From Dehalococcoidia bacterium (GTDB lineage: Bacteria > Chloroflexota > Dehalococcoidia > Lucifugimonadales > UBA1127): a DNA stretch of 64,000 nt. The stretch is from NCBI GenBank assembly GCA_965249605.1, contig OZ252245.1, forward strand, positions 830,250 to 894,249, written 5' to 3'. Of the stretch, positions 2,660 through 50,875 are shown piece after piece; within the stretch, counting starts at the first letter, position 1, and each line of letters starts with the position of its first letter. The notes beneath the pieces are model-generated. The model saw only the letters and a program-made list of their open reading frames with translations, had not been told where the DNA came from and ran no database searches. Both the position numbers and the translations under genes were made by a program.

Positions 2660-3805
2660 CTAGCGTCCCCAGAGGGCCTTGGTCGCGATGCCGGCGCCCT
2701 CAACCATTGAGCGGAACTTGCCCCACACGATGTCCGGGTGCACCCTCCCGCCGAGTCCGCAGTCAGTGCCCGCCACGACGTTCTCGCGCCCGACGAGGTT
2801 TGCCAGCCGCTCGATGCGGTCCGCGATGAGTTCCGGGTGCTCGATGACGTCGTTGGTGTGCGCGACGACGCCGGGGATGAGCACCTTGCCGTCGGGGAGC
2901 TTAACATCGCGCCACAGCTTCCACTCGTGCTCGTGGCGCGGGTTCTGGTCGTAGGAGATGCCGGACGACCGGACCTGCAGCAGCAGGTCGACGAACTCGT
3001 TGAGGTTGATGTCCTCCGAGTGGGGGCCGCGCATGCCGCCGTAGCAAATGTGGAGCCGGATCTGTTCCTCAGGGATGTCCTGCAGCGTGTGGTTCAGCAG
3101 CTCCACCAGCCGCCCAATCCGCATCCGAAAGTCGGGCAGCTCCATGCCGAGGGCGTTGAACTTCATCACCGGGGTGTCCACCTGCAGGACGAAGCCGGCG
3201 TCAGTAATGACCTTGTACTCCGCGCGCATGGCCTCGGCGCAGGCGCGGGTGTACTCCTCTTCTGAGCCGTAGTACTCGTTCTGCTCCGGCTGGTAACCCA
3301 CGTTGTCCGGCCCCACGGAGGCCATGAAGCCCTCGGCCACGTCGACTGCCTGGAGGGCGGCCTGGAAGTTCTCAACGTCCGCTTGGATTTCGGCGTGGCC
3401 GGTGTAGGAAATGGGGCTTGTGCAGATTATCTGCCTGGCGGGCGCGGCGCCCCGGTTTCTGGCCAGGTCGGCGAAGTAGCGCTCGTAGTCGCCCTTGACG
3501 CGCTCCGTGCCACGCTCCGTGTTGCCTCCGCCGGTCGCAACTTCACGGAACTCGAAGCCGCTGAGGCGGTCCCGGATGTAGCCCGACCAGCCGGTCTTGT
3601 ACTGCTCGCCGTCATTGATGATGTCCAGGCCCACGTCCGCTTGCTGTCGAACGATGTTGGCGACAGACTCCTTCACCAGCGCCGCCATCGCCGCCTCGTC
3701 GTAGGGCTCCAGGGCCTGCTTGGCGTCGAGCATTGCCCGCAACTCCGGCGGTCGGGGCATGCTGCCGACATGGGTGGTCAGGATCCGGTCCGTGCTGTGT
3801 CTCAT
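2660..3805 (-). CDS. Cobalamin-independent methionine synthase (MetE) C-terminal-domain-like Zn enzyme, single domain (paralog 1 of 5)
   Basis: Start chosen at MRHSTDRILTTHVGSMPRP (ATG 3805, AAGGAG upstream) rather than the track start at 3862. Contains H-x-C (RLHICYGG), NPRHEHEW and TDCGLGG motifs. Confidence 0.85.
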   Translation of the reverse strand: MRHSTDRILTTHVGSMPRPPELRAMLDAKQALEPYDEAAMAALVKESVANIVRQQADVGLDIINDGEQYKTGWSGYIRDRLSGFEFREVATGGGNTERGTERVKGDYERYFADLARNRGAAPARQIICTSPISYTGHAEIQADVENFQAALQAVDVAEGFMASVGPDNVGYQPEQNEYYGSEEEYTRACAEAMRAEYKVITDAGFVLQVDTPVMKFNALGMELPDFRMRIGRLVELLNHTLQDIPEEQIRLHICYGGMRGPHSEDINLNEFVDLLLQVRSSGISYDQNPRHEHEWKLWRDVKLPDGKVLIPGVVAHTNDVIEHPELIADRIERLANLVGRENVVAGTDCGLGGRVHPDIVWGKFRSMVEGAGIATKALWGR

Positions 3806-3916
3806 GAAGTTCTCCTTTGCTGCTTGGGTTCGCCGCCCCGCACGAGGCGGCAGGGCATCCATGGCGGCAGGCGATTCTCGAATCGCCCCTACGGGACCTG
3901 CTTAGGACGCAGGGAG

Positions 3917-4894
3917 CTAGGTGTCCAGGGTGCTGGCGGCCATCCAGTCCTCCAACGAGAGCCGTTTGCTGGTGAGGCCCTGCTCAGCGTTGTACGTCAG
4001 GAACGTGTCGATGGTCCCCATATCGTCCTTGACGCCGTAGGTCCATGGGTCGCCCCACACCTTCTCCTGCTCAACCACCGCCTCCCGCTGGTACATAAGG
4101 GAGAAGCCCGCGCGGTCGTTCACGGCGTCGATGTAGGCGAGCCGCTTGGCCTCAACGAAGGCGTCGAACACGCGGAGGGCCAACTCGGGGTCCTCCCGGT
4201 CCAGCTTCCGGCTCATCACCATCTGGTGCATTGGCGCGTGGATGCGCATCTCGTTCCAGAGGGCCAGGTCCTCTTCCTGGTAGTTGGGGAAGACGCGCTT
4301 CACGTCAGGGCTCGCCTCCAGCATGGCGAAGGCCGCCCCGTCCGAGATGTCCGAGATGATGGCGTCGACGTCCCCCGCCATGAGTCGGTCAAGAGGGCCA
4401 ACGGGCGCCTGGCCGTCAGTCGCCTCGAGAGAGGGCAAAACAGAAGGGCGGTCCACGTGCAGCGGGAAGACGCGCCGGCTGTTGGTGACCTCCCACCTGA
4501 GTGTCGAGATGTCGACGCCGTGCCGATGTTGCAGCAGCCCGGCCGCCCACACGGTGATCGACGTCGGGTACGACCCCGATCCGATGCGCTTGCCCTCAAG
4601 GTCCTTCGGTGTCTCAATTCCGGCGTCGGCGCGGCAGTAGATGAAGGTGTAGACCGGCTTGCGCTTGACCATGATGGGCAGGCCGACGATCTCCCATCCG
4701 GCCTCGATGGCGGGCAGCACGTAGCCGAGGTTCAGGTCCCACAGGCCGAAGTCGCCGGACTGCAGGGCGGGCATTTCGTTGAAGACCATCGCGGCCGTCG
4801 GGCCGGGCGCAAGCTCCACGCCGGGAATCTGGACGCGCCCGTCGAGCAGGGGCATGGTGATGTCGTAGCGCATGGTGGAAATTGGTATCTGCAT
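3917..4894 (-). CDS. 4,5-dihydroxyphthalate decarboxylase (PhtD)-like protein with a periplasmic-binding-protein-type fold
   Basis: 325 aa with GGAGGT 5 nt upstream of the ATG. Blocks match my recollection of PhtD-family proteins: PLLDGRVQIPGVEL, PKDLEGKRIGSGSYPTSITVWAAGLL..HGVD, MAGDVDAII. Confidence 0.6.
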   Translation of the reverse strand: MQIPISTMRYDITMPLLDGRVQIPGVELAPGPTAAMVFNEMPALQSGDFGLWDLNLGYVLPAIEAGWEIVGLPIMVKRKPVYTFIYCRADAGIETPKDLEGKRIGSGSYPTSITVWAAGLLQHRHGVDISTLRWEVTNSRRVFPLHVDRPSVLPSLEATDGQAPVGPLDRLMAGDVDAIISDISDGAAFAMLEASPDVKRVFPNYQEEDLALWNEMRIHAPMHQMVMSRKLDREDPELALRVFDAFVEAKRLAYIDAVNDRAGFSLMYQREAVVEQEKVWGDPWTYGVKDDMGTIDTFLTYNAEQGLTSKRLSLEDWMAASTLDT

Positions 4895-6410: not shown

Positions 6411-6740
6411 ATGACGAGGGCAGTCTATCAAGTGCGCCTCATTGTGAAGCCGGAGCTCGAGGAAGAGTTCAATGCCTGGTACGAGGGCTGGTACATCCCC
6501 AAGCTCATGGCGGAGGTTCCACACTTCTTTTCCTGCCATCGCTACGTGGGGGAGTTCGACGGGCACAATATTTACATAACAGACTATGAGACAACCGTCG
6601 AGGACATGGAGACGGCCATCGCGGAGATGCGCGTGCCGGAGCGCGCCCCCGTGAACGCCCTGTTCTACGAGTGGCGCGACAAGGCGATCACGCTCCACGA
6701 GTCCATCCGCTTCACGGAGCGCGTCACGGTGGAGCGCTAG
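6411..6740 (+). CDS. Small hypothetical protein, possibly a dimeric alpha/beta-barrel (EthD/DUF4286-like)
   Basis: 109-aa ORF with G/C-rich third codon positions. Its stop is 1 nt before the next start (6742). The fold guess is weak and from memory. Confidence 0.45.
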   Translation: MTRAVYQVRLIVKPELEEEFNAWYEGWYIPKLMAEVPHFFSCHRYVGEFDGHNIYITDYETTVEDMETAIAEMRVPERAPVNALFYEWRDKAITLHESIRFTERVTVER

Positions 6741-6741
6741 C

Positions 6742-7281
6742 ATGGCGTCGATCGAGGAACGGCTGCAGCAACTGGAGGACCGGCAGGCCATTCGCGACCT
6801 GGTCGCCGAGTACTGCCGCGCCATAGACGACCGCGACCTCGAGGCGTTCGTGGGGAACTACACGGACGACTGCGTCCATCGCCAGCGGGACGGTTCGCTG
6901 CACTTGGAGGGCAGGGCCGCGCTTCGGGAGCACTATGCGGCACGATTCTTACAATACGGTGTCACCCTCCACACGCCGCACGCCCACGTCATCACTTTCG
7001 ACGGGCCGGACAGCGCCCACGGCTGGGTGAGCGGCCACGCCGAGATGGGGCTGCAGGGCGAGGGCTGGCTCGCCGCCTTCCGCTACGCCGACGAGTACCG
7101 CCGCGAGGACGGCGTGTGGCGGTTCGCCAAGCGTGAGCTGAACACCTACTACTACCTGCGCATGGCGGACCTCGCGACGGGCCTTGGCGGCGCTATGCGC
7201 AAGCACTACCGCGGCGAGCTGGGCCCAGCGGACCTGCCGGAGGGCCTAGACACGTACAAGCGCCTGCATGGGCTGGGGTGA
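6742..7281 (+). CDS. SnoaL-like / NTF2-family protein
   Basis: N-terminus IEERLQQLEDRQAIRDLVAEYCRAIDDRDLEAFVGNYTDDCV is typical of SnoaL_4-type NTF2-like proteins. Confidence 0.75.
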   Translation: MASIEERLQQLEDRQAIRDLVAEYCRAIDDRDLEAFVGNYTDDCVHRQRDGSLHLEGRAALREHYAARFLQYGVTLHTPHAHVITFDGPDSAHGWVSGHAEMGLQGEGWLAAFRYADEYRREDGVWRFAKRELNTYYYLRMADLATGLGGAMRKHYRGELGPADLPEGLDTYKRLHGLG

Positions 7282-7741: not shown

Positions 7742-7745
7742 CAGC

Positions 7746-9147: not shown

Positions 9148-10299
9148 ATGGCAACACAGTTTCGAGCGGACCACGTGGGCAGCTTCCTCCGGCCTGCCGA
9201 AGTGAAGGAGGCCCGCCAGGCGTTCGTTGCGGGGCAGATCTCCGAGGACGCGCTGCGGCTGGTGGAGGATGAGCACATCCTGCGCGTGATCGAGCTGCAG
9301 AAGCAGTCGGGCATTGGCATCTACACGGACGGCGAGATTCGCCGCAGTGGCTGGGCCGGCGGTTTCGGCGAGTCCGTGGAGGGCTACGTCGAGGGCACTC
9401 CCGCCGTCAGCATGCCCTTCCAGGGCGGACGCAGCGACTGGGTTGGCGCCGGAATCACCCCGGACAACCCCATCGGCGTTCCCGGGGGTGGCGCCGGTGG
9501 CCGTGTCATCGGCGGCAAGCTGACACAGACGCGGCGGCTGACGGGGCACGAGTCGGCCTTCATCAAGCAGCACGCACCGGGGCCCTACAAGGTGACGATG
9601 CCCGCGGCCAGCTACGTCACGGCGCGCGGCTTCAAACCGGGCGTCACCGACCAGGTCTACAAGTCGCGGGTGGCCGTGCTGGCCGACGCGGCCGCCATCA
9701 TCCGCGGCGAAGTCGTGACCCTCATTGAGGAGGGGTGCCCGTACGTGCAGATCGACAACCCCCACTACCCGGACTACATCCCTGACGACCGGCGTGCCCA
9801 GTGGACAGCCCTCGGTATCGACCAGGACCAGGCGCTGAGCGACGACATCGAGGCGGACAACGCCAGCGTTCGCGGCGTCGACCGGAGCAACACCATCGTG
9901 GCGATGCATCTGTGCCGTGGCAACGGGGCCTTCGGCGCCTTCCACACGTCGGGCGGGTACGACCGCATCGCCGAGCAGCTCTTCAGCCGCCTCGAGGTGG
10001 ACGCGTGGTTGCTGGAGTACGACAGCGAGCGCGCGGGCGGCTTTGAGCCGCTGCGGTTCATGCCCAAGGGGGTGACGGTGGTGCTGGGGCTGGTGACGAC
10101 CAAGGCCGGCGAGATGGAATCACAGGACCTGCTGCTGAGCCGGATTGAAGAGGCGGCCAAGTACGCGGACATGGACGACCTCGCGCTGAGCCCGCAATGC
10201 GGGTTCTCCTCGACGCTGCAGGGGAACCCGCTGCAGTGGGACGACCAGCTGCGGAAGCTGGAGCTCGTGGTGGAGACAGCCCGCCGCGCCTGGGGCTAG
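9148..10299 (+). CDS. MetE C-terminal-domain-like Zn enzyme (paralog 2 of 5; distinct YxjG/YxjH-like subtype)
   Basis: Start moved to ATG 9148 (MATQFRADHVGSFLRP), with AAGGAG at 9131-9136. Contains the H-x-C motif AMHLCRGN and the distal SPQCGFSS motif. Confidence 0.85.
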   Translation: MATQFRADHVGSFLRPAEVKEARQAFVAGQISEDALRLVEDEHILRVIELQKQSGIGIYTDGEIRRSGWAGGFGESVEGYVEGTPAVSMPFQGGRSDWVGAGITPDNPIGVPGGGAGGRVIGGKLTQTRRLTGHESAFIKQHAPGPYKVTMPAASYVTARGFKPGVTDQVYKSRVAVLADAAAIIRGEVVTLIEEGCPYVQIDNPHYPDYIPDDRRAQWTALGIDQDQALSDDIEADNASVRGVDRSNTIVAMHLCRGNGAFGAFHTSGGYDRIAEQLFSRLEVDAWLLEYDSERAGGFEPLRFMPKGVTVVLGLVTTKAGEMESQDLLLSRIEEAAKYADMDDLALSPQCGFSSTLQGNPLQWDDQLRKLELVVETARRAWG

Positions 10300-10442: not shown

Positions 10443-11321
10443 CTACACCTGGTCGGCGGGGCTGGTGAAACCGACGCCTGAGCCGGAGTCGCGCGCATCC
10501 CAGCGGCCCGCTTCTACTGCGGTCAGGAAGTCGGCGACGGCGCGGTTGAACAGGTCGGGCTCCTCTACGTTGCAGGCGTGGCCCGTCTGGGGCAGCACCA
10601 CGATGCCGCTGCGGGGGATGCGGCGCTTCATGTAGATGGCGGGCTCCAGGCACGGGTCGTCCTCGTCGCCGAGGATGATGAGTGTGGGCACCTGCATCGC
10701 GCGAAGCTCCTCGTCGAGCGTCATGATGGAGCGACGCCGCGCCTGGTAACCGCGCAGCGTCAGCGCCTTGCCCTGCGCTGAGTGGTCCGCAAAGAGGTCC
10801 GCGAACTCTTGCCAGCCAAGCGGGTCCTTTTGCAGAAAGCGGATGCGCGTTGGCCCGCGCAGGTAACCCCCCATTGCGGCGGTGCCACCCGACTCCAGCG
10901 TTGCAGCGTAACCGATGGACTGCCGGTTGAACGTCTCGGGGTCCGTGCTGCCCGTGCCTGCGCCCGCTACGATGATCGACTTCGCGACCTCGGGGTGGGT
11001 GAGGCCGAACCAGAGGGCCATGTTGCCGCCCATGGAAAGCCCGGCGACGTGCGCCTGCTCGATGCCGAGATACTGCAAGAGCTGGTATAGGTCCTCCACC
11101 ACCTGCTCCTGCGAGTAGTCTTCCATGCTCTGCGGCACGTCCGACGGCGGGTAGCCGCGGGCGTTGTAGGTGATGACGCGGTACCGGCGCGAGAAGTAGC
11201 TCACCTGGGCGCGCCAGCTCTCGTAGCTGCCCGCAAGCTCGTGGGCGAAGACTAGGGGGAAGCCCTGGCCCGTTTCCTCGTAGTAGAGGCTGACGCCGTT
11301 TTGCAGTTGTGCCATCGGCAT
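10443..11321 (-). CDS. Alpha/beta-fold hydrolase
   Basis: Start chosen at ATG 11321 (MPMAQLQNGVSLYYEETGQG), GGAG upstream. Has the HELAG oxyanion region and the nucleophile elbow GLSMGG. The longer track ORF would overlap the divergent MFS gene. Confidence 0.85.
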   Translation of the reverse strand: MPMAQLQNGVSLYYEETGQGFPLVFAHELAGSYESWRAQVSYFSRRYRVITYNARGYPPSDVPQSMEDYSQEQVVEDLYQLLQYLGIEQAHVAGLSMGGNMALWFGLTHPEVAKSIIVAGAGTGSTDPETFNRQSIGYAATLESGGTAAMGGYLRGPTRIRFLQKDPLGWQEFADLFADHSAQGKALTLRGYQARRRSIMTLDEELRAMQVPTLIILGDEDDPCLEPAIYMKRRIPRSGIVVLPQTGHACNVEEPDLFNRAVADFLTAVEAGRWDARDSGSGVGFTSPADQV

Positions 11322-11500
11322 GGCAATGCTCCAGTCTCGCGCCCATGGGATGCGCGGTGTAATGGTCTCGTGGGCAGGGGCAACGTAGCCGCCGTATGGG
11401 ACGGTGTCAAGGCAGGGCGCGCCGCCTCCGTCGCCGTCCCCGCGCTGCATGACGCGTCGGCCCGTGTGGGGTATGCTATCCCCAGCTGCACGAGGAGCGC

Positions 11501-12898
11501 TTGTTGTCCACACCAGTAGCCGAAACAACCCCTCGGTTCTTTTATGGATGGGTTATCGTCTTTGTGGCGGCGGTCAAGGGCGCGTTCAACGTCGGCAGCG
11601 CGGTCTTCGCCACCAGCGTATTCCTGGTCCCCATGCAGGACGACCTCGGTTGGAGCCGCACCCTCATATTCGGCGCGCTGTCGGTGCGGACGCTCGCCGG
11701 CGGGATGCTCAGTCCCATCGTGGGCCCGTGGGGAGACCACCCGTGGGCGCCGCGGGTCGCGCTGCCCATCGGCTCCGTGCTCTTCGGCCTTTCCTTCATG
11801 CTCGTCAAGTGGGCGGACACGCCGCTTGAATACTACTTGACCTACGGTGTCCTCGGCGCGTTGGGGCTGGCCCTGACCAGCAACCCCATCCTCGAAGGCG
11901 TCGTGCTCAAGTGGTTCATCCGGCGAAGGGCGCAGGCCATCATGTGGATGCAGGTGGGCCCTCCCACCGGACCGATGATCTTCCCGCTTATACTCACGTT
12001 TCTTATCGCCGCTGTCGGGTGGCGCGATGCCTGGATGTGGTTGGGCATCGCTGCGACGGCAGTCTTCCTGCCCCTCTCGCTGTTGGTGCGGACGTCGCCC
12101 GAGTCTATGGGCCTTCTCCCGGACGGCGACCGCCCCGGCGCGGCGCCCCCGCCCTCGACCTCCGGCGGCCGACGCGGCGTCCCGGGCAACGAGCGCAGCT
12201 TCACTCGTGGTGAGGCGATCCGCAGCAAGTCGTTCTGGATGCTGTGCCTCGCGTTGGCGTTGAGCATCGTCGGGCTGCCGGGGTTCCAGGCCCACTGGGT
12301 GCCCTACCTGGTCGACATCGACTTCAGCCGTGAGGTGGCTGCCACCGCGCTTGTGGTCTTCGGCATCTTCTCTGTCGCGGCGCGCTTTGTCTGGGGCTAC
12401 CTCACAGCGCGGCATGACATCCGCAACCTCATGGTTCTCCAGGCATTGCTGGCCGTATTGGGGGTGCTCTTCCTGTTGAACGTGCAGAACACTGTGATGA
12501 TGTACGCTTGGGCGGTCTACCACGGTCTCACTCTGGCCGTCTTCTTCCAACTGCAGGCGCTCCTTGTGGTCACCTACTTCGGCAGGGGCCACATTGGGGC
12601 CATTCGAGGCGTCATGTTTCCCTTCATCACGCTGGGCTCCGCCATGGGTCCCATCCTGCTGGGCGCGCTGTACGACTGGCAGGGGTCCTACTTGGTGCCC
12701 TTCTCTCTGGTCATCGTCATGTGGTTGCTGGCCGCGTTGGTCGTATTCATGACCCGGCCGCCACGTCCGATAGAGGAGCCTGCGACGGAGGCTGAAGCAG
12801 CGCCTGCTCCAGAAGCTCAGGCAGCGCCCTTACCCGTGGCCGGGACTGCGCCTGCGTCGGAAACACAGGTGGCGCCCAAGCCGGAGGCGGCCGCGTGA
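11501..12898 (+). CDS. MFS transporter (FFYGWVIV family; related to 36696 and 38115) with an Ala/Pro/Glu-rich C-terminal tail
   Basis: 465 aa, TTG start with GAGGAG at 11492-11497. Multiple TM segments. The N-terminus PRFFYGWVIVFVAA...VPMQDDLGWS is shared with the two tandem MFS genes. The tail is EEPATEAEAAPAPEAQAAPLPVAGTAP. Confidence 0.85.
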   Translation: MLSTPVAETTPRFFYGWVIVFVAAVKGAFNVGSAVFATSVFLVPMQDDLGWSRTLIFGALSVRTLAGGMLSPIVGPWGDHPWAPRVALPIGSVLFGLSFMLVKWADTPLEYYLTYGVLGALGLALTSNPILEGVVLKWFIRRRAQAIMWMQVGPPTGPMIFPLILTFLIAAVGWRDAWMWLGIAATAVFLPLSLLVRTSPESMGLLPDGDRPGAAPPPSTSGGRRGVPGNERSFTRGEAIRSKSFWMLCLALALSIVGLPGFQAHWVPYLVDIDFSREVAATALVVFGIFSVAARFVWGYLTARHDIRNLMVLQALLAVLGVLFLLNVQNTVMMYAWAVYHGLTLAVFFQLQALLVVTYFGRGHIGAIRGVMFPFITLGSAMGPILLGALYDWQGSYLVPFSLVIVMWLLAALVVFMTRPPRPIEEPATEAEAAPAPEAQAAPLPVAGTAPASETQVAPKPEAAA

Positions 12899-33013: not shown

Positions 33014-33037
33014 TTGTACGGGCAAAGGAGGTCTGCC

Positions 33038-35337: not shown

Positions 35338-36597
35338 ATGCTGACCACGCAAGAGACGGAATACCTCTGCAGAGTGGGCCCCGGCACGCCCATGGGCAAC
35401 CTGATGCGCCGCTTCTGGCACCCGGTGCTGCTCTCGAAGGAGCTGCCCGGACCGGACTGCCCGCCGCTGCGCTCGCGCATTTTGGGTGAGGACCTCGTCG
35501 CGTACCGTGACTCCAACGGCAAGGTGGGGTTGCTGGACAACAACTGCCCGCACCGGCGCGCAAGCCTGTTCTTCGGCAGGAACGAGGAGGCCGGGCTGCG
35601 CTGCGTCTACCACGGATGGAAGTTTGACACGAGCGGCGCCTGCGTCGACATGCCGTCGGAGCCGGCGGATAGCAACTTCAAGGACAAGGTCAAGATCAAG
35701 GCGTACCCGGTAAAGGAAGCGGGCGAGTTGATCTGGGCGTACATGGGGCCACCGGAGCTTGAGCCGCCTCTGCCGATGCTGGAGTACAACTCGCTCGGGG
35801 CGGACCAGGTGTCCGTGTCCAAGCTCCGCTATGAGTCCAACTACGTGCAAGTCGTCGAGGGCGACATCGACACGGTGCACGCCTCTCTGCTGCACAGCCG
35901 GTTGTCCGCGCTGGATGACGCCCCTACGGCGACGTCGCTGGCGGGCAAGTACTCGTACCCGGACCGCGCGCCCAAGTTCTTCGTCGAGGACACGGACGGC
36001 GGCATCCTCATCGGCGCGCGGCGCCGTGCGGAGGAAGACAGCTACTACTGGCGCATCTCCCGGTGGCTCTTCCCCTATTTCACCATGATTCCAAGGGAGC
36101 CGCATGGCATCACCCAGGGCGGCGCCATGGTGCCTATCGACGACGAGAACTGCTGGTTCGTGCACATCCGCTGGAACCCCTACGGCCCCTTGACTGAGGA
36201 CCAGCGGTACGAGAACAACTTCGACCTGAACATCAGGGACGACGGTTCCTGGCTGGCCATCGGCAACCGCCGCAACGACTACCTCATCGACCGGGAGAAG
36301 CAGCGGACCGAGTCTTACACCGGCATCGCCTTTGTGCGGGCGCAGGACTCCGCCATGACGGACAGCATGGGCACTATCGCCGACCGCTCCAAGGAGCACC
36401 TGGCGACGACAGACACGGCGATCATCCGCATGCGCCGGCGTCTCATCAAGGCGGCCCGGGCGTTGGAGGACGGCGTCGAGCCGTTCCCGCCGCACCACCC
36501 CGAGTCCTACAAGGTGCGCTCTGGCGGATGCGTGCTCCCAAGAGATGTATACTTCACCGAAGACACCGAGGTCTTGGCCGACATAACCGTGAAGTAG
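35338..36597 (+). CDS. Rieske non-heme iron oxygenase alpha subunit, phthalate-dioxygenase-like (class IA type)
   Basis: Rieske site CPHRRASLFFGRNEEAGLRCVYHGWKF and mononuclear Fe site DIDTVHASLLH. The N-terminus LCRVGPGTPMGNLMRRFWHP is typical of the phthalate-dioxygenase clade. Confidence 0.9.
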   Translation: MLTTQETEYLCRVGPGTPMGNLMRRFWHPVLLSKELPGPDCPPLRSRILGEDLVAYRDSNGKVGLLDNNCPHRRASLFFGRNEEAGLRCVYHGWKFDTSGACVDMPSEPADSNFKDKVKIKAYPVKEAGELIWAYMGPPELEPPLPMLEYNSLGADQVSVSKLRYESNYVQVVEGDIDTVHASLLHSRLSALDDAPTATSLAGKYSYPDRAPKFFVEDTDGGILIGARRRAEEDSYYWRISRWLFPYFTMIPREPHGITQGGAMVPIDDENCWFVHIRWNPYGPLTEDQRYENNFDLNIRDDGSWLAIGNRRNDYLIDREKQRTESYTGIAFVRAQDSAMTDSMGTIADRSKEHLATTDTAIIRMRRRLIKAARALEDGVEPFPPHHPESYKVRSGGCVLPRDVYFTEDTEVLADITVK

Positions 36598-40244: not shown

Positions 40245-41057
40245 CTACCCCTCCCGCACCCGGAAGGCCTGCAGCGCTGTTTTGCTGAAGGCCCACTCGC
40301 GCTCCTCTTCGGTCTTGAAGACGGGGTGGTCTTGCACCCCGAGGAGGGAGTTGCGGTAGCCCTCTCGGCCGGCTACGGGCGGGAAGTCGCTGCCCCACAT
40401 CATGCGCTGCGCGCCGAAGACCTCGTAGGCCATCTCCATGGCGGGCGGGACGTCCTCGAAGCGCAGCTCCGGGGAGAGCCGCCCCGGCCGCTGCCCAAAC
40501 TCGCCGATGCCGCCGAACTTGATGTAAGTGTTGGGCCGGGACGCCAGCTCCAACGCCTTCTTGTAGTTATCGTACGGGGCCACCACCGACTCCGGGCTGC
40601 GGGGGTGGTACATGCCGCACAGGTGCTCCAGCACGATGGTGGTGTCCGACACGCCGAGGATGAGCTCCTGAAAGCCCGCGTCCGCCGTGTGAGCGGTGTT
40701 GACCAAGAACACGCTGACGGGGAGGCCGACCTCGCCGGCCTTGCGCCAGATGGCCGAGGGGTCGTCGCCGGGCGAGCGGTCCGTGGGCAGCAGGCGGACG
40801 CCGCAGACGTCCGGGTTGGCGGCGAGGGCTTCAAGCGTCGCGGGGGCGTCGGGGTCCGAGGCGTCGACGCCGGCGATGGCGCTGAAGCGGCCCGGGAACC
40901 GCTCAATGCACTCTAGCAGGTAGGAGTTGTCGTACATGCCGCGGTGCTGGGTGAGCAGGGCGCGCTGCACGCCGTTGTTGTCCATGCAGGCCAGCAGGGT
41001 CTCGATGGGCTCGAACCAGCTCGTGCCCGCGTGGCAGTGGGTGTCGACGTAGTCCAT
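40245..41057 (-). CDS. Amidohydrolase-2 family TIM-barrel metal-dependent hydrolase (LigI/ACMSD superfamily)
   Basis: MDYVDTHCHAG N-terminal metal motif, GSDFPP near the C-terminus. Confidence 0.85.
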   Translation of the reverse strand: MDYVDTHCHAGTSWFEPIETLLACMDNNGVQRALLTQHRGMYDNSYLLECIERFPGRFSAIAGVDASDPDAPATLEALAANPDVCGVRLLPTDRSPGDDPSAIWRKAGEVGLPVSVFLVNTAHTADAGFQELILGVSDTTIVLEHLCGMYHPRSPESVVAPYDNYKKALELASRPNTYIKFGGIGEFGQRPGRLSPELRFEDVPPAMEMAYEVFGAQRMMWGSDFPPVAGREGYRNSLLGVQDHPVFKTEEEREWAFSKTALQAFRVREG

Positions 41058-44368: not shown

Positions 44369-44809
44369 ATGCAAGCTAAGGGGTTCAGCCACATCTATCT
44401 GCCGTCCCGGAGCGTGGACGAGTCCATCGCCTTTTACACGGAGCGGCTGGGGTTCAAGCTGCTCCGGAAGTACAGGACGGGGACCGGAGGATCGGCGTCG
44501 GCGTACTGCGAGCTTGGGGGCGTGCTGCTGGAGCTGACGCAGGGACAGAACACGCCGGACTCGGACGGGCGGACGGAGCCGCGCATCGGGCTGCAGGTGG
44601 ACGACATCGCGGAGGCCATTGCGGAGCTGAAGGCCGCGGGCGTGCACGTGGAGCGCGAGCCATGGACCGCGCGAACCTTCTGGGGGCTGCAGGCGATGAT
44701 CAAGGACCCCTCCGGCTGGATCATCTCGCTGCGAGAGTGGAGGGAGCCGGACAACCCCTACTACGCCGACTGGCAGCCCGTGCATGACGACGTGGAGCGG
44801 CTGGCGTAG
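44369..44809 (+). CDS. VOC (glyoxalase/bleomycin-resistance/dioxygenase) family protein
   Basis: 146 aa. GFSHIYLPSRSVDESIAFYTERLGFKL and KDPSGWIISL are typical VOC beta-alpha-beta-beta-beta modules. Confidence 0.85.
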   Translation: MQAKGFSHIYLPSRSVDESIAFYTERLGFKLLRKYRTGTGGSASAYCELGGVLLELTQGQNTPDSDGRTEPRIGLQVDDIAEAIAELKAAGVHVEREPWTARTFWGLQAMIKDPSGWIISLREWREPDNPYYADWQPVHDDVERLA

Positions 44810-44954: not shown

Positions 44955-46139
44955 TTGAAGCGCAGTGAGGACAGGATTTTGACCACCCACGTGGGCGCGT
45001 TGCCCCGGCCGCAGGAGCTTGGCGCGATGGTGCTCGCGAAGACGACCGGGCGATTGCTCGACGCCGACCAACTCGCGGAGTGGCTGCGGAACGCGGTCGC
45101 CGACGTGGTGCGCGCGCAACTGGACGCGGGCATCGACATCATCAACGACGGGGAATACGGCAAGACCAACTGGAACAACTACATCGGCGGGCGGCTGTCG
45201 GGGTTCGAACACCGTGACCCCACGCCGGACGAGGTGACGGGGTCCGGGACACAGGCGGGGATCGTCGGGCGAGACCGGCGCGCCTTCGATGAATTCTACG
45301 CGGACTATGACGCCAACGCCGCACGCATCCGGCAGGCGCGCGCAGGCGGGGCCTCCGCCACGTCCCAGAACCTGGTCAACGTCGGGGCGGTGTCGTACAC
45401 AGGGCAGGCAGCCATCCAAACGGACGTCGACAACCTGCGGGGGGCAATCGGGTCGGCGCCGGTCGTGGACGTGTTCATGCCCTCCGTAGGCCCGGACAAC
45501 GTTTTGCCGCAGAGCCGCTACGAGCACTACGCAGGCGAGGCGGAGTACGTGGCGGCGGTGGCCGAGTCGATGCACTCCGAGTACAAGGCCATCACGGACG
45601 CTGGGTACATCCTGCAGATCGATGCGCCGGTGGGCAAGTTTGAGACGCAGGACATGACGCTGGAGGGCTTTCGCGCCCGGTTTGCCCGCAGTGTGGAGGC
45701 GCTGAACCACGCGCTGGAGGGCATCCCGGAGGAGCAGGTGCGTTTCCACCTGTGCTTCGGGAGCTGGCACGGCCCCCACGGCTACGACCTGGAGCTGAAG
45801 AACGTGGTGGACCTGGTGCTGCAGGTGAACGCGCAGGCCTACTCCATAGAGGCGGCAAACCCGCGACATGAGCACGAGTGGAAGGTCTGGCGCGACACCA
45901 AGCTCCCCGACGGGAAGATCCTCATGCCTGGGGTTGTGACCCACTCCACCAACACCATCGAGCACCCGGAGTTGGTGTCGGACCGGATCGAGCGCTTCGC
46001 CGGTGTGGTCGGGCGGCAGAACGTGGTGGCGAGCACCGACTGCGGGCTGGGGGCGCGGGTACACCCGCAGGTCGCGTGGGCCAAGCTGCGGACATTGTCG
46101 GAGGGTGCGCGGATGGCCAGCGGTCGGCTGTGGGGATAG
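44955..46139 (+). CDS. MetE C-terminal-domain-like Zn enzyme (paralog 3 of 5)
   Basis: TTG start with GAGGAGG upstream: MKRSEDRILTTHVGALPRP. Motifs: FHLCFGSW, NPRHEHEW, TDCGLGA. Confidence 0.85.
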   Translation: MKRSEDRILTTHVGALPRPQELGAMVLAKTTGRLLDADQLAEWLRNAVADVVRAQLDAGIDIINDGEYGKTNWNNYIGGRLSGFEHRDPTPDEVTGSGTQAGIVGRDRRAFDEFYADYDANAARIRQARAGGASATSQNLVNVGAVSYTGQAAIQTDVDNLRGAIGSAPVVDVFMPSVGPDNVLPQSRYEHYAGEAEYVAAVAESMHSEYKAITDAGYILQIDAPVGKFETQDMTLEGFRARFARSVEALNHALEGIPEEQVRFHLCFGSWHGPHGYDLELKNVVDLVLQVNAQAYSIEAANPRHEHEWKVWRDTKLPDGKILMPGVVTHSTNTIEHPELVSDRIERFAGVVGRQNVVASTDCGLGARVHPQVAWAKLRTLSEGARMASGRLWG

Positions 46140-46142
46140 GGG

Positions 46143-46327: not shown

Positions 46328-48046
46328 ATGGCTAGCTCAGCGGAGCACATTCTGCAGGTGTTGGAAGAGGCCGGTGTCGAGTACGTATTCGGGATACCCG
46401 GGGGCGGGACCAGCCAGATCTTCGCGCTGATGCATGGGCGAGAGGACCGCATCAAGCCGATCCTCGTACGGCACGAGCAGGTGGCGGGGATCATGGCGGA
46501 CGCCTACGGCCGGGCAACAGGCAAGCCCGCCGCCGTGATGGGACAGGGGCTGTTCATCGGCTCGAACGCGAGCTTCGGCATCATGGAGGCGATGCTGAGC
46601 AGCTCGCCGATGCTGGTGGTCACGGACACGTCCGACGGCGGGGCGGGGCAGCACCCGGCGAACCAATCGGGCGCAGGGGAGTACGGCAGCATCGACCTGC
46701 CGGCCATCTTCCGCGCGATGACCAAGTACACCACGCTGGCGGCCAGCCCCAAGGAGGCGGTCATCGGCACGCAGCTCGCGCTGAAGCACGCCACCACGGG
46801 GCGGCCGGGCCCCGCGGCAGTCGTCATGCGCTCGGCGGCGGCGGGGGGCGAGGTCGACGTGGAGTCGCCGCCGTTTCTCCACCACACGGCGGGGTACCTG
46901 AACAACGCCAAGCCGCAGAGCGCGCCGGAGGACATCAGCCGGGCCGTCGACATCCTGGCGGCGTCGCAGCGGCCGGTGATCGTCGCGGGCAACGGCGTCC
47001 ACGTCTCACGCAGCCACGAGCTCCTGCGGGAGCTGGCCGAGGCGTTGGGCGCGCCGGTGGCGACGAGCTACAAGGGCAAGAGCGCCATCGCGGAGACGCA
47101 CCCGCTGTCGGTGGGCATGGCGGGCGTCTACGGGCAGGCCGCGGCCAACGCGGTCGTGGGGGACGCCGACACGGTGCTCGTTGTCGGGGCGAAGCTCTCG
47201 CCGCAGGACACGGTGCGGGAGCGGCCGAGCGTCTTCGACCCGCGGCGGCAGCGGATCATCCAAATAGACATCGACGAAAACAACGCGGGGTGGACCTTCC
47301 CCGTCGAGCTTGGGCTTGTCGGCGACGCGGCAAAGGTGATGGGGCAACTGCTGGAGGAGACGCGCTCTCGCGGCGCCACGGCGACGCCGGAGCGCGCGGC
47401 ATGGACGGCCTCGCTGCCGGAGCGCAGGCAAAGCCACGGCTACTACGATGAGCCCGCCATGCACGAGGAGAGTTCGCCAGTGACGCCGCAGCGGCTCGTG
47501 TCGCTGCTGCGCGCAACGATGCCGGAGGACACGGTGTACGCGCTGGACGCGGGCAACAATCGGACATGGATGGCGCACATCTTCCAGGCCGTGCAGCCGC
47601 ACACCTTCTTCTGCCCAGGCGGCACCGCGGGCATGGGCTGGGGGCTGCCGGCGGCCGTCGCGCTGAAGCTGGTGTACCGCGACCGGCCCGTCGTGTGCGT
47701 CACGGGCGACGGCGGCTACATGATGACGGTGAACGCCCTGTCGACGGCGATGCAGTACGACCTGCCGATGATCTGCGTGGTGTTCAACGACGGCGCGTTG
47801 GGCATGGTGAACCAGCACCAGGCGGAGGGGAAGAAGGTCGCGTCCGAGTTCTACCCGACGGACAACGCGGCGGTGGCGCGCGGTTTCGGGGCCTACGGGG
47901 TGCAGGTGCGGGACTCGCGCGACCTGCCGGGGGCGTTGCGCGACGCGATGGCGTCGGGGCTGCCGGCGGTCGTCGACGTGATCATCGACCGGGAGCAGCG
48001 CCCGGACGACTTCCGCGCCGACGTGCGGAGGGCGACCGAAACGTAG
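46328..48046 (+). CDS. Thiamine-diphosphate-dependent enzyme (acetolactate synthase large-subunit-like family)
   Basis: 572 aa. N-terminal GVEYVFGIPGGG...VRHEQVAGIMADAYGRATGKPAAV and C-terminal TPP motif GDGGYMM...NDGALG. Confidence 0.9.
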   Translation: MASSAEHILQVLEEAGVEYVFGIPGGGTSQIFALMHGREDRIKPILVRHEQVAGIMADAYGRATGKPAAVMGQGLFIGSNASFGIMEAMLSSSPMLVVTDTSDGGAGQHPANQSGAGEYGSIDLPAIFRAMTKYTTLAASPKEAVIGTQLALKHATTGRPGPAAVVMRSAAAGGEVDVESPPFLHHTAGYLNNAKPQSAPEDISRAVDILAASQRPVIVAGNGVHVSRSHELLRELAEALGAPVATSYKGKSAIAETHPLSVGMAGVYGQAAANAVVGDADTVLVVGAKLSPQDTVRERPSVFDPRRQRIIQIDIDENNAGWTFPVELGLVGDAAKVMGQLLEETRSRGATATPERAAWTASLPERRQSHGYYDEPAMHEESSPVTPQRLVSLLRATMPEDTVYALDAGNNRTWMAHIFQAVQPHTFFCPGGTAGMGWGLPAAVALKLVYRDRPVVCVTGDGGYMMTVNALSTAMQYDLPMICVVFNDGALGMVNQHQAEGKKVASEFYPTDNAAVARGFGAYGVQVRDSRDLPGALRDAMASGLPAVVDVIIDREQRPDDFRADVRRATET

Positions 48047-48115: not shown

Positions 48116-48457
48116 ATGGAACCGATCACGCGCATGTACACGGGCGACGACGGCGAGTCCCACATCGAGGACGTGAACCTGGCGGACCACCCGGAGCTGG
48201 CGGAGGGCCTGAAGGCCACGAACATCACCTTCCGCGAGTACCCGCCGGGCCACTTCGTCGACTGGCACCCCGGACCGCGGCGGCAGTTCGTCATCACGAT
48301 TGCGGGTGAGGGCGAGATCGGGCTGGGGGACGGCACCCTCCATAGCTTTGGGCCAGGGCACGTGAACTTGGTGGAGGACACCACAGGACACGGTCACACC
48401 ACGCGTGTCGTCGGCGACGTGCCGCGCATCACGTGCACGATTCCCATCGAGGAGTAG
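48116..48457 (+). CDS. Cupin-domain protein
   Basis: 113 aa with GGAGGG upstream. Beta-rich sequence with WHPGPRRQFVITIAGEGEIGLGDGT..FGPGHVNLVEDTTGHGH. Confidence 0.65.
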   Translation: MEPITRMYTGDDGESHIEDVNLADHPELAEGLKATNITFREYPPGHFVDWHPGPRRQFVITIAGEGEIGLGDGTLHSFGPGHVNLVEDTTGHGHTTRVVGDVPRITCTIPIEE

Positions 48458-48565: not shown

Positions 48566-49705
48566 ATGCTGCGGAGTACGGAACGCATTCTGACCATGCA
48601 CGCGGGCACGACGCCGCGAGTGCCTGACCTGCGGCAGATGGTGCTGGACAAGAGCTCAGGTGGGAAGGTGGACGAGGCCGATCTGACCGCTCGGCTGCGA
48701 GAGGCCATCGCGGAGGCGGTCGGGCGGCAGGTGGCGATCGGGCTGGACAGCATCAACGACGGCGAGCTCGGCAAGTCGAGCTTCACCAACTACGCGCGAG
48801 AGCGGCTGACGGGGCACGTGAACCGGCTGGCGCAGCTGGGCAACGTGCTGGCGAGGATCTACGGCCGGGACGCGGCGGACTTTCCCGACTACTTTGAGGG
48901 CCGGGGCAACCTGGGAGGCTTCGAGGTGGTGTGCGTCGGGCCGCTGGCCTACACCGGCCAAGAGGCCATCGCGGAGGACATCGCCAACTTCAAGGCGGCG
49001 CTGGACGGCGTCGACGGGCCGGAGCCGTACCTGCCCGCCGTCGCGCCGGGCACCATCGAGCACTGGATGAAGAACGAGCACTACGCCTCTGACGAGGAGT
49101 ACCTCTTTGCCATTGCCGACGCCATGCACGAGGAGTACAAGGCAATCGTCGACGCGGGTTTCCTTCTGCAGATCGACGACCCGGACCTGGCGGACGGCTG
49201 GCAGATACAGTCGGGGCTGACGGTGCCGGAGTACCGGAAGTTCGCGCAGCTCCGCGTCGAGGCGCTGAACCACGCCTTGCGGGACATCCCGGAGAGCAGC
49301 GTGCGCTTCCACATGTGCTGGGGGAGCTACAAGGGGCCCCACGTCCACGACATCCCGCTGGCGGACATTGTCGACATCATCCTGAACGTCAAGGCAGAGG
49401 GCTACTCCATCGAGGCGTCCAACCCTCGCCACGATCACGAGTACGAGGTGTGGCAGGACGTGAAGCTGCCGGAGGGCAAGCTGCTCATACCCGGCGTCAT
49501 CGGGCACGCAAACGACTTCATCGAGCACCCGGAGCTGGTGGCGCAGCGGCTGGTGCGCTACGCCGAGGCTGTCGGGCGCGAGAACGTCATGGCGGGGACG
49601 GACTGCGGCATCGGCTCGCGGGTGGGACACTCGTCGGTGTGCTGGGCCAAGTTCGAGTCGCTGGTGGAGGGCGCACGGCTGGCTACCAAGGAGCTGTGGG
49701 GCTAA
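48566..49705 (+). CDS. MetE C-terminal-domain-like Zn enzyme (paralog 4 of 5)
   Basis: MLRSTERILTMHAGTTPR; FHMCWGSY; NPRHDHEY; TDCGIGS. Confidence 0.85.
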   Translation: MLRSTERILTMHAGTTPRVPDLRQMVLDKSSGGKVDEADLTARLREAIAEAVGRQVAIGLDSINDGELGKSSFTNYARERLTGHVNRLAQLGNVLARIYGRDAADFPDYFEGRGNLGGFEVVCVGPLAYTGQEAIAEDIANFKAALDGVDGPEPYLPAVAPGTIEHWMKNEHYASDEEYLFAIADAMHEEYKAIVDAGFLLQIDDPDLADGWQIQSGLTVPEYRKFAQLRVEALNHALRDIPESSVRFHMCWGSYKGPHVHDIPLADIVDIILNVKAEGYSIEASNPRHDHEYEVWQDVKLPEGKLLIPGVIGHANDFIEHPELVAQRLVRYAEAVGRENVMAGTDCGIGSRVGHSSVCWAKFESLVEGARLATKELWG

Positions 49706-49720
49706 CGGAGGGGATAGACC

Positions 49721-50875
49721 ATGCCTAGCGGCGTCGAGCGCATCCTGACCACGCACACCGGCAGCCTGCCGAGGCCAGCGGACCTGCTTGCCATGATCCA
49801 GGCCAAGGAGACGGGGCAGCCCTTCGACGCGGAGGAACTCGCTGCCGCGGTGCGGCGGTCGGTCGCGGAGGCGGTGGAGGCGCAGGCCAACGCCGGCATC
49901 GACATCGTCAACGACGGCGAGTTCAGCAAGCCGGGGTTCTCCGACTACATCAAGGACCGGGTGAGCGGCCTCGGGGGCGTGGACCCGTCTCCGCAGGCGC
50001 CAACGGAAGTGGACTTCCCCGAATTCGCGGAATGGTGGCGCGGCGTCGGATTCCTGGGCAGCGTCGCGTTCCCGCGGCCGGTGTGCGTCGGGCCGATGGC
50101 GTGGACGCACCCGGAGACGGTGGAGACGGACCTCGCCAACTTCAGGGACGCGCTAACGGGCGTCGACGTTGCGGGCGCCTTCATGACGGCATCGTCGCCG
50201 GGCATACTCGACCTGCGCATCGCCAACCGGCACTACGCCTCCGAGGAGGAGTACGTCTACGCCCTCGCGGAGATGATGAAGGTGGAGTATCGCGCCATTG
50301 CGAACGCGGGGTTCGTGCTGCAGGTGGACGCGCCGGAGATGGCGATGGGGCGCAACTGGGCGCGGTTCCGCGACGGCTCGCTGGGGGACTTCCGCCGGGT
50401 CATGGGCCTGTGGGCGGAGGCGCTGAACTACGCGCTGGGGGGCATCCCGGAGGAGCAGGTGCGCTACCACATCTGCTGGGGCAACAACGAGGGGCCGCAC
50501 GTTCGCGACGTGCCGCTGCGGGACATCGTGGACATTGTAATGCAGGTGCGCGCGGGCGCGTACTCCGTCGAGGCGTCCAACCCCCGGCACGCGCACGAGT
50601 GGCGGGTGTGGCAGGACGTGAAGCTGCCGGAGGGCAAGACGCTCATCCCCGGAGTCATCGACTCCACCACGAACTTCGTTGAGCACCCGGAGCTGGTGCG
50701 CGACAGGATCCTGAGCTACACCAACGTCGTCGGGCGAGACAATGTCGTTGCAAGCACGGACTGCGGGTTCGGCACCTTTGCGGGCCGGTCGCGCGTCCAT
50801 CCCACCGTCGTGTGGGCAAAGCTGCAGGCAATGTCGGAGGGCGCGAGGCTGGCAAGTCAGGAACTTTGGGGCTAG
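49721..50875 (+). CDS. MetE C-terminal-domain-like Zn enzyme (paralog 5 of 5, tandem with paralog 4)
   Basis: MPSGVERILTTHTGSLPRP; YHICWGNN; NPRHAHEW; TDCGFGT. It starts 15 nt after the previous stop. Confidence 0.85.
   Translation: MPSGVERILTTHTGSLPRPADLLAMIQAKETGQPFDAEELAAAVRRSVAEAVEAQANAGIDIVNDGEFSKPGFSDYIKDRVSGLGGVDPSPQAPTEVDFPEFAEWWRGVGFLGSVAFPRPVCVGPMAWTHPETVETDLANFRDALTGVDVAGAFMTASSPGILDLRIANRHYASEEEYVYALAEMMKVEYRAIANAGFVLQVDAPEMAMGRNWARFRDGSLGDFRRVMGLWAEALNYALGGIPEEQVRYHICWGNNEGPHVRDVPLRDIVDIVMQVRAGAYSVEASNPRHAHEWRVWQDVKLPEGKTLIPGVIDSTTNFVEHPELVRDRILSYTNVVGRDNVVASTDCGFGTFAGRSRVHPTVVWAKLQAMSEGARLASQELWG

Follow-up and report, generated by a model that had tools for sequence, protein, structure and literature searches.

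Cobalamin-independent methionine synthase (MetE, EC 2.1.1.14) is a protein of about 750 amino acids (aa) composed of two barrels, an N-terminal folate/polyglutamate barrel (Meth_synt_1) and a C-terminal barrel that forms the catalytic domain (Meth_synt_2, PF01717) and carries four zinc ligands. Homocysteine is bound by S433, E484 and D599 of the Escherichia coli enzyme, which are equivalent to S411, E462 and D577 in Thermotoga maritima (PMC7857596, PMC539065). Single-barrel relatives are known as well. The core methionine synthases MesA-MesD have the zinc and homocysteine residues and are folate-independent; the partner of MesD is MesX/DUF1852, that of MesA-MesC a corrinoid protein or Wood-Ljungdahl genes (PMC7857596). 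In epoxyalkane:coenzyme M (CoM) transferases (EaCoMT; EtnE, XecA), a single-barrel MetE homolog belongs to a catabolic pathway beside an oxygenase, and for EtnE both function and gene cluster have been described (PMC8727900). Protist MetE-fusion proteins and single-domain prokaryotic homologs, which we compared by description, are core-MetE proteins without folate barrel, for which alternative methyl donors were proposed (PMC10861871). Here, we analysed a stretch of 64,000 nucleotides (hereafter the window) from a Dehalococcoidia bacterium of the phylum Chloroflexota (GenBank assembly GCA_965249605.1, contig OZ252245.1, positions 830,250 to 894,249), in which five genes, designated A to E, encode MetE-like proteins. 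Judging from the residues that these proteins retain, we tentatively suggest that they may use zinc, but no folate, to transfer methyl or other alkyl groups to the sulfur of homocysteine from donors that catabolism provides, a proposal that we consider plausible but somewhat short of probable.

A previous reading of the DNA from its letters alone (the sequence-only reading) had described five coding sequences of about 380-400 aa with homology to the C-terminal half of MetE. This proved correct in coordinates and strands: all five reading frames are intact, the encoded proteins match PF01717 as their sole Pfam family (E between 9e-13 and 3.5e-19; the gathering score is exceeded in every case), and tblastn with the five proteins and E. 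coli MetE found exactly five copies and zero fragments in the window. An AlphaFold2 model of D (pLDDT 91.4) retrieved the C-terminal barrel of T. maritima MetE as best match in Foldseek (TM score 0.77, root-mean-square deviation 2.9 Å), together with MesD (3RPD; TM score 0.74/0.81), and structures of uroporphyrinogen decarboxylase (UROD) at a TM score of about 0.5 and 10-14% identity. With high confidence, A-E are thus single (beta/alpha)8-barrel homologs of the MetE catalytic domain. For protein D, an exact-sequence lookup returned no identical record.

The five proteins fall into two groups, an assignment that we also make with high confidence. A, C, D and E are 45-51% identical among themselves (D to its neighbours in the window, 44-48%) and about 22% identical to B. 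They belong to a large, phylogenetically broad and uncharacterised subfamily, whose members in other phyla are 38-64% identical to them and which we name after its NPRHEHEW block. The motif set of this subfamily, RILTTHxG(S/T/A)xPR, HxC(W/F/Y)G…GPH, N-x-RH-x-HE(W/Y), IEHPEL and TDCG, with the block further written as (S/L)xE/D-x(1,2)-NPRHEHEW, is present in A, C, D and E and not in B. By sequence, proteins of the A/C/D/E type matched nothing in the PDB except MetE, MesD (3RPD) and 1YPX, with E of about 1e-7. B is probably of the YxjG/YxjH/1YPX group: it aligns end to end with 1YPX (E 1.9e-53) and is the only one of the five to share the motifs PQCGF(S/A)S and HxCRGN with YxjG/YxjH-type proteins (1YPX; PRK06520/PRK06233), but its 261.8 bits on the NCBIfam model PRK06520 stay below the cutoff of 313. 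In Bacillus, YxjG and YxjH are under the control of an S-adenosylmethionine (SAM, S-box) riboswitch. B has no riboswitch, and the genes in synteny with it are A and those for SnoaL, a hydrolase and a major facilitator superfamily (MFS) transporter, not methionine genes. The motifs quoted in the sequence-only reading (HxC, a distal DCG or QCG, RILT.H.G..PR and NPRH.HE[W/Y]) are all there, and its view of the gene at 9148 as a different subtype agrees with the low identity of B, its 1YPX-type sequence and its separate clade in the tree described below.

Are these proteins methionine synthases, as their name suggests? The sequences argue that they are not bona fide MetE, in line with the earlier doubt that this name explains their function. 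Compared with MetE, they are of half size (379-394 aa), 18-24% identical and devoid of Meth_synt_1, so that they should have no polyglutamyl-folate site. None of A-E reaches the cutoff of a curated NCBIfam methionine-synthase model. On the MetE models (TIGR01371, cutoff 929.95; PRK05222, cutoff 541), they score 21-39 bits, with 26-39 bits on TIGR01371 against a cutoff of, rounded, 930. The archaeal and core methionine-synthase models yield 15-99 bits against cutoffs of 258-406 (PRK04326, 75-99 against 406; PRK09121, 42-67 against 392; PRK00957, 31-53 against 258). Since EtnE is likewise named ‘cobalamin-independent methionine synthase II family protein’, this generic NCBI name carries no functional information.

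To map functional residues, we aligned the C-terminal domain of E. coli MetE with A-E, and assessed conservation in sequences of the fetched loci (101 of the subfamily, 12 of B-type). His, Cys and Cys occupy the positions of the zinc ligands H641, C643 and C726 throughout A-E, and the position of the fourth ligand, E665, is occupied by Glu in B, C, D and E and by Asp in A. The claim of intact zinc ligands thus survived. Asp at this position is fixed in eight of eight A-orthologs and also occurs as zinc ligand in the characterised core synthase MesB (PMC7857596); for both reasons, we regard it as a feature of the lineage and not as an error or defect. Such an intact Cys2-His-Glu/Asp site supports zinc-thiolate alkyl transfer as what would be the most economical chemistry. 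The sequence-only reading had suggested inspecting the homocysteine-binding residues, and this check went the other way. The equivalents of E484 and D599 are Glu and Asp in all five proteins, while at the position of S433, A, B and E have Ser, D has Thr and C has Ala; MetE contacts homocysteine at this position partly via the backbone (PMC539065). Retention of the three positions favours a homocysteine-alkylating reaction. E484, D599, H641, C643 and C726 are conserved in 113 of 113 sequences (100%). Beyond these, A, C, D and E differ from MetE by an aromatic residue in place of its Asp-Met-Val motif and by extra invariant His/Arg loops (GPH, NPRHEHEW and EHPEL). The invariant residues of the subfamily (H12, K70, R247, H259, D262, N286, R288, H291, E292, E320, H321, R352 and H355 in D numbering) all map, in the AlphaFold2 model of D, to C-terminal strand ends or the loops that come next, i.e. 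to the active-site face, with the His/Arg-rich loops coming after strands beta5-beta8.

EtnE is instructive for the thiol substrate, EaCoMT being the one member of the superfamily known to use a thiol other than an amino acid. Its gene in Nocardioides JS614 (pNOCA01; locus L100, 34268-35359, minus strand) is located beside etnABCD and CoM-biosynthesis genes. EtnE shares the single barrel and the HxCWG and TDCG motifs with the window proteins and keeps the zinc ligands and D599, but has Asn for S433 and Lys for E484 and lacks NPRHEHEW and EHPEL. CoM has no alpha-amino group, and the charge reversal from Glu to Lys would suit its sulfonate. Since both exchanges are found in a CoM-using enzyme, the thiol triad appears to track the substrate. 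At the same two positions, the window proteins and all examined members of the subfamily have Ser/Thr/Ala and Glu, and such a retained triad favours an alpha-amino-acid thiol, most simply homocysteine. As the homocysteine residues are kept where EtnE deviates, a reaction forming methionine or S-alkyl-homocysteine with a non-folate donor is favoured and compatible with these residues. Overall similarity to EtnE is low (24-27% identity, 36-60 bits in blastp; EtnE and E. coli MetE, 63 bits). In comparison with the core synthases, A/C/D/E-type proteins match MesD (3RPD) by sequence only at E 3.7e-7, and the family hidden Markov model (HMM) cutoffs and the identity of about 40% applied by Price et al. 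are not reached. The window proteins also differ from MesA-MesD in being multi-copy and placed in catabolic operons, with neither MesX nor corrinoid or Wood-Ljungdahl partners among the scanned open reading frames (ORFs).

In the reaction that we envisage, zinc with His, Cys, Cys and Glu (Asp in A) as ligands would bind and deprotonate a thiol. The substrate would be homocysteine or a closely similar alpha-amino acid, kept in place by the Ser/Thr (Ala), Glu and Asp that are retained from the homocysteine site of MetE. The resulting thiolate would attack a non-folate donor at its methyl (or other alkyl) carbon, with the donor bound by the subfamily-specific invariant loops after beta5-beta8. 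Such donors may be methylated or methoxylated organics that are taken up or arise in the pathway, because the proteins have no folate barrel and no corrinoid or MesX partner and because their operons contain oxygenases, decarboxylases, NTF2/cupin proteins and uptake genes. The enzymes would act as O2-, folate- and corrinoid-independent demethylases yielding methionine, and the paralogs would differ in their donor; that A, C, D and E each have orthologs of their own fits different specificities. A more far-reaching version appears unlikely to us, namely that the NPRHEHEW subfamily consists of unrecognised cofactor-independent demethylases, which would pass methyl groups from methoxylated aromatics or methylated dissolved organics to homocysteine without O2, folate or corrinoid.

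The subfamily is widespread. A word-indexed search returned at least 8000 clusters at 90% identity (all E<=1e-10), with proteins of Chloroflexota metagenome-assembled genomes (MAGs) as the nearest; those clusters that have a name are called ‘cobalamin-independent methionine synthase II family protein’ or bear an automatic MetE label. A HMMER search of 1.84 billion representatives yielded 1026 clusters at 50% identity (E<=1e-30). In GTDB species representatives, the motifs N[PVA]RH[ED]HEW and …EHPEL… occur in at least 600 places, in Dehalococcoidia, Chloroflexia, Acidobacteriota, many Alphaproteobacteria, Gamma- and Betaproteobacteria, Verrucomicrobia and Planctomycetes; Actinobacteria and haloarchaea also belong to the range of the subfamily. 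Plasmid-borne copies are found in cultured Novosphingobium, Sphingobium, Croceicoccus, Ruegeria, Octadecabacter, Rhodococcus, Dietzia and Pantoea as well as in many haloarchaea. Among five cultured homologs, the motifs are kept in four (Novosphingobium, Rhodococcus, Croceicoccus and Ruegeria), and the protein of Dietzia has NHRHSHEI and no EHPE. One protein of 683 aa (P0234) is a natural fusion of an NPRHEHEW-type domain with a C-terminal Cupin_2 domain, which fits the cupin-like ORF upstream of D and the cupin genes near the homologs of roseobacters. Cupin is the only fusion partner found in the subfamily, whereas the protist MetE-fusion proteins carry PP-binding and CzcO domains. A second apparent fusion, of a MetE-like protein with LysR (P0251), was taken as a likely gene-call artefact.

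The sequence-only reading had proposed an expanded family recruited to catabolism and had called five copies in 64 kb unusual. We constructed a neighbour-joining tree, which is rough (BLOSUM distances, no bootstrap), and found the B-type clade apart from the NPRHEHEW clade, in which A, C, D and E branch away from one another, each together with orthologs of its own, and E has a long separate branch. C is 98% identical to protein P0001 and 79% identical to the copy of a Tara Oceans Dehalococcoidia MAG; A is 91% and 87% identical to its orthologs in loci L012 and L003; A and B share 91-95% identity with their counterparts in another Dehalococcoidia genome; and D is 61-64% identical to proteins of other Chloroflexota and of a deltaproteobacterial MAG. 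The matches of A, B and C make an origin of the window in Dehalococcoidia most likely by sequence, too. On the basis of tree and ortholog identities, we rejected recent tandem duplication. Given their separate placement and their orthologs in other genomes, A, C, D and E are to be seen, as far as sequences tell, as old paralogs and not as a local burst. Catabolic context, in turn, does recur in distant relatives, as detailed below; the earlier proposal is supported in this respect, but not as to a local expansion. The five copies are indeed dense, yet two to three copies within about 20 kb are common (14 of 86 other loci carrying a family member), and their density is no anomaly but results from two conserved islands taken together. 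Two loci (L006, 5488-9158; L007, 940-4610) have three tandem MetE-like genes, one of B-type and two of NPRHEHEW-type, in L006 beside a glucose-methanol-choline (GMC) oxidoreductase; many transposases surround both.

The window has a G+C content of 62-68%, and codon-position G+C singles out about 60 genes, of which those relevant here are compiled in the table. The MetE-like genes had been described as embedded among oxygenases and decarboxylases. The neighbours are real (three LigXa-type Rieske oxygenases, two Amidohydro_2 proteins, a PhtD-like protein and a thiamine pyrophosphate (TPP) enzyme, with the cupin as a weak match only, E 0.003), but they form two islands instead of one cluster: A and B (2.6-10.3 kb) are separated from C, D and E (45-51 kb) by about 35 kb of housekeeping genes, among them an F420-dependent luciferase-like monooxygenase (LLM)-type oxidoreductase, tRNA-Thr, dapA, asd, dapB, pnp, folD, cobO, an HtrA-like protease and a Na/H exchanger.

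Features of the window around the MetE-like genes A to E, in order of position
Feature	Position	Strand	Remarks
Molybdopterin hydroxylase large subunit (xanthine dehydrogenase / 4-hydroxybenzoyl-CoA reductase alpha-like)	320..2602	(+)	adjoins A
MetE-like paralog A	2660..3805	(-)	381 aa; NPRHEHEW subfamily; PF01717 E 2e-14; Asp replaces Glu zinc ligand
PhtD-like (4,5-dihydroxyphthalate decarboxylase-like) cytoplasmic protein	3917..4894	(-)	directly upstream of A, 111-bp gap
Two DinB_2 / maleylpyruvate-isomerase-family genes	4937-5563 + 5643-6269	(-)	Pfam DinB_2, MDMPI_N; thiol-dependent metalloenzyme family
109-aa conserved ORF and SnoaL_4/NTF2-like protein (6742-7281)	6411..7281	(+)	between A and B; SnoaL_4 E 8e-27
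MetE-like paralog B	9148..10299	(+)	383 aa; YxjG/YxjH/1YPX type; PF01717 E 3.5e-19
Alpha/beta hydrolase next to B	10443..11528	(-)	distant PcaD-like matches; neighbour cluster 9, recurs in 9 loci
Third LigXa-type Rieske monooxygenase	35338..36597	(+)	
Amidohydro_2 (LigW/LigY-class fold) protein	40245..41057	(-)	
Glyoxalase/vicinal oxygen chelate (VOC)-fold protein (FosA-like)	44369..44809	(+)	upstream of C
MetE-like paralog C	44955..46139	(+)	394 aa; TTG start; NPRHEHEW subfamily; Ala at S433 position
TPP-dependent enzyme (acetolactate-synthase/Xsc-like, below all cutoffs)	46328..48046	(+)	between C and D; order kept in L001
113-aa cupin-like ORF	48116..48457	(+)	upstream of D; weak Cupin_2 match, E 0.0034, below cutoff
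MetE-like paralog D	48566..49705	(+)	379 aa; NPRHDHEY variant of block
MetE-like paralog E	49721..50875	(+)	384 aa; 16 bp downstream of D
147-aa hydrophobic (membrane) ORF	50921..51364	(+)	downstream of E; no Pfam match; kept in L001, L011
Two LigXa-type Rieske monooxygenases	51508-52836 + about 52866-54152	(+)	downstream of C-D-E; Rieske + LigXa_C; L001 gene calls agree
Second Amidohydro_2 protein	58130..59350	(+)	

Island 1 runs from the molybdopterin hydroxylase through A, the PhtD-like gene, two DinB_2 genes, the 109-aa ORF and the SnoaL_4 gene to an inserted ORF pair without Pfam match, B, the alpha/beta hydrolase, an MFS transporter and RNase D, and it is syntenic in related Dehalococcoidia contigs (L003, L008, L012 and L013). 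We clustered about 1500 ORFs from 90 loci without bias in order to survey neighbours. The molybdopterin hydroxylase (cluster 12) has eight members in eight loci, five of them within 1.5 kb of a MetE-like gene; the PhtD-like protein (cluster 15) has seven members in seven loci, all within this distance. The latter shows a weak NMT1/THI5 Pfam match, but its assignment as NMT1-like solute-binding protein was overruled by a full-length match to 4,5-dihydroxyphthalate decarboxylase (PDB 9jp7, E 6e-29) and by the lack of a signal peptide. For these reasons, NMT1-like neighbours of MetE-like genes elsewhere (e.g. in L002 and L048) may be decarboxylases and not binding proteins. On TIGR03083 (cutoff 50), the two DinB_2 proteins score 45.9 bits (4937-5563) and 51.3 bits (5643-6269). 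The 109-aa ORF and the SnoaL_4 gene are kept beside MetE-like genes in L008, L012 and L013, and L003 likewise has a SnoaL_4 protein with a called 109-aa ORF next to it. The inserted pair (135 and 387 aa; 7334-8909, plus strand) lies between SnoaL_4 and B; the 387-aa ORF has a lower third-position G+C and a Gly-rich hydrophobic C-terminus, and is present in L012 and absent from the syntenic L003 and L008.

Island 2 starts with a quinone reductase, a LigXa-type Rieske gene, two MFS transporters, a nucleotidyltransferase-like ORF with AadA_C domain and an Amidohydro_2 gene, continues with an IS1595 transposase, DUF805, the VOC-fold protein, C, the TPP enzyme, the cupin-like ORF, D and E, and ends with the 147-aa membrane ORF, two LigXa-type Rieske oxygenases, a 2-hydroxyacid dehydrogenase, SBP_bac_5, Amidohydro_2, a second 2-hydroxyacid dehydrogenase and a short-chain dehydrogenase/reductase. 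In the relative with P0001 (443-kb ENA contig, L001), the gene order from C to the Rieske genes is identical. Upstream of C, the window has the IS1595-family transposase (41215-42165, plus strand), where L001 (7424-9966) has a haloacid dehalogenase (HAD)-type hydrolase and an rve integrase; this is a strain-level rearrangement at the edge of the island. An origin of the C-E region from a known plasmid was dismissed, as megablast against plasmids yielded one 89-bp Rieske match only. Neither DUF1852/MesX nor a B12-binding protein was found among the roughly 60 scanned ORFs, CoM-biosynthesis and alkene-monooxygenase genes are equally absent from them, and the sole corrinoid-related gene of the window is a cobO-type adenosyltransferase (23363-23956) at least 13 kb from any MetE-like copy. 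An Rfam scan of the window revealed no SAM or cobalamin riboswitch, with a transfer-messenger RNA (tmRNA) and a tRNA as sole matches.

Further observations concern the remainder of the window. A luciferase-like oxidoreductase (14028-14972, minus strand) scores 243 bits on TIGR03560 (F420-dependent LLM), above the cutoff of 231, which suggests that the organism uses F420. Three consecutive genes for class I SAM-dependent methyltransferases (289, 239 and 216 aa; 31468-33664, plus strand) are followed by RidA/L-PSP and a quinone reductase. At 62243-63143 (minus strand), the tmRNA gene (tag GERELALAA) lies beside smpB, and an overlapping 381-aa ORF without Pfam match (61221-62366) is probably spurious.

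Genomic company in other organisms supports the recurrence of a catabolic context in distant relatives. The commonest neighbours in the 90 loci are uptake proteins, i.e. TctC receptors (17 loci), Liv-type ATP-binding cassette (ABC) transporter components, Peripla_BP_6 and NMT1-like proteins, and an M24 creatinase/prolidase-like protein adjoins MetE-like genes in seven loci. In Croceicoccus marinus (pCME4A9I; L094), the gene order is metF-purU-folD-folB-[MetE-like]-NTF2-IclR, and start and stop of the MetE-like gene overlap its neighbours, consistent with translational coupling; the operon lies beside a ligM-type aminomethyltransferase gene (O-demethylase homolog) and the protocatechuate 4,5-cleavage genes ligAB. 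Novosphingobium pentaromativorans and Sphingobium RAC03 have the MetE-like/NTF2/IclR trio inside lig or hydroxycinnamate/ferulate clusters, and the coding regions of the sphingomonad trios overlap or nearly abut (L094, 7618-10277; L092, 8995-11287; L097, 6995-9285). In sphingomonads, O-demethylation by LigM supplies methyl-tetrahydrofolate, and strain SYK-6 is a methionine auxotroph without methoxylated substrates (PMC11868366). Roseobacters combine cupin, in part a SAM-methyltransferase, MetE-like, hydrolase and RraA genes with SnoaL-type ‘ester cyclases’; the cupin gene adjoins the homolog in Octadecabacter and lies two genes upstream in Ruegeria, where the SAM-methyltransferase gene is beside the MetE-like gene. 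Dietzia and Rhodococcus NJ-530 have the order MetE-like/2-oxoglutarate oxygenase/YaaH/PhyH/HD, and in Rhodococcus PD04 the MetE-like gene is located 30 bp downstream of true metE.

Several points weigh against a methyl transfer to homocysteine. The Asp-Met-Val motif, by which MetE contacts the homocysteine sulfur, reads x-Trp/Phe/Tyr-x in the window proteins, and the conserved Glu and Asp could serve another role. Zinc-thiolate attack on an aryl methyl ether is chemically demanding, and the Rieske enzymes of the window, which are of O-demethylase type, would make an aryl-ether route redundant. Neighbourhoods are heterogeneous, with no single class of donors emerging, and no methionine- or SAM-cycle gene adjoins the MetE-like copies in the window. 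Cysteine synthase A is found in 15 loci, at a distance of about 6 kb and, in all but two of the 15, on the opposite strand; distance and orientation make it a weak link to sulfur metabolism, which we discarded as probable lineage synteny. Finally, the searchable literature yielded no characterised function or paper for the NPRHEHEW subfamily, and a sequence search of the PDB no member of it.

What else could these proteins do? The zinc-activated thiol might not accept a methyl group but add to an electrophilic catabolic intermediate as in EaCoMT, which is a proven precedent in the superfamily. Homocysteine, cysteine or a low-molecular-weight thiol would then be conjugated to an epoxide, arene oxide, quinone methide or activated ether, with NTF2/SnoaL and DinB-type proteins as partners making or resolving the adduct. 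The two DinB_2/maleylpyruvate-isomerase-family genes near A, the VOC/FosA-like protein upstream of C, the NTF2/SnoaL association recurring across phyla and the adjacent oxygenases, which could generate electrophiles, would all fit. The window proteins, however, resemble EtnE (24-27% identity) no more than they resemble E. coli MetE, they have retained the Glu and Ser that are exchanged for Lys and Asn in EtnE, CoM-biosynthesis and alkene-monooxygenase genes are not nearby, and a lyase releasing the conjugate is not evident, so that we consider thiol conjugation unlikely. We are similarly doubtful about a thiol-independent function, in which zinc would serve as Lewis acid in a site of the beta-carbonic anhydrase or alcohol dehydrogenase type and the MetE-like residues would merely be inherited in a UROD-type fold. 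Such an enzyme would (de)carboxylate, hydrate, hydrolyse or isomerise an aromatic or alicyclic carboxylic acid, as might be expected from the fold in common with UROD, from decarboxylase-type neighbours (PhtD-like, Amidohydro_2, TPP and RraA proteins), from carboxylate-type TctC receptors as the commonest neighbour and from the many invariant His/Arg, which suit binding of carboxylate or phenolate. Yet UROD is a metal-free decarboxylase barrel and a weak structural match (TM score of about 0.5 against 0.74-0.77 for MetE/MesD) to proteins with a zinc site, and all characterised superfamily members with a Cys-rich four-ligand zinc (MetE, MesA/B/D and EaCoMT) alkylate thiols (PMC7857596). Complete conservation of the amino-group-binding Glu/Asp in the 113 sequences would also be hard to explain without an amino-acid ligand.

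At the other end, the genes might encode housekeeping core methionine synthases akin to MesA-MesD, which would obtain the methyl group from a corrinoid protein or MesX-type partner and be found in catabolic surroundings by coincidence. Single barrel and intact zinc and homocysteine residues are as in MesA-MesD, one homolog directly follows metE in Rhodococcus PD04, and the protist MetE-fusion proteins, with their core-MetE domain, are induced when B12 is limiting (PMC10861871). We nevertheless judge this very unlikely in view of four to five paralogs per 64 kb (two to three per locus in relatives), the wide margins by which all NCBIfam methionine-synthase models are missed, the lack of DUF1852/MesX, B12-binding protein and SAM or cobalamin riboswitch in the scans described above, and an aerobic, oxygenase-rich context with catabolic operon partners in several phyla. 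We thus return to homocysteine S-methylation or S-alkylation with catabolic donors as the function that we tentatively prefer.

The sequences described here are already in databases and the superfamily is well known; what is new is a large mislabelled subfamily with a testable hypothesis. About 1000 clusters at 50% identity bear the label ‘methionine synthase’ without supporting evidence, and as a consequence databases predict methionine biosynthesis too often and overlook a function in catabolism or assimilation. The sphingomonad orthologs, with their trio in lig clusters, are found in cultivable, genetically tractable strains, so that the function is directly testable. If the donors are indeed non-folate compounds, the proteins would give access, by a new route, to the methyl groups of methylated compounds that derive from lignin or occur in the sea, and could be potential biocatalysts for O2-independent O-demethylation. 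Should the subfamily turn out to consist of demethylases, the demethylation of lignin and dissolved organic matter would be directly coupled to methionine and SAM supply, and the paralog arrays of Dehalococcoidia would constitute a palette of donor specificities.

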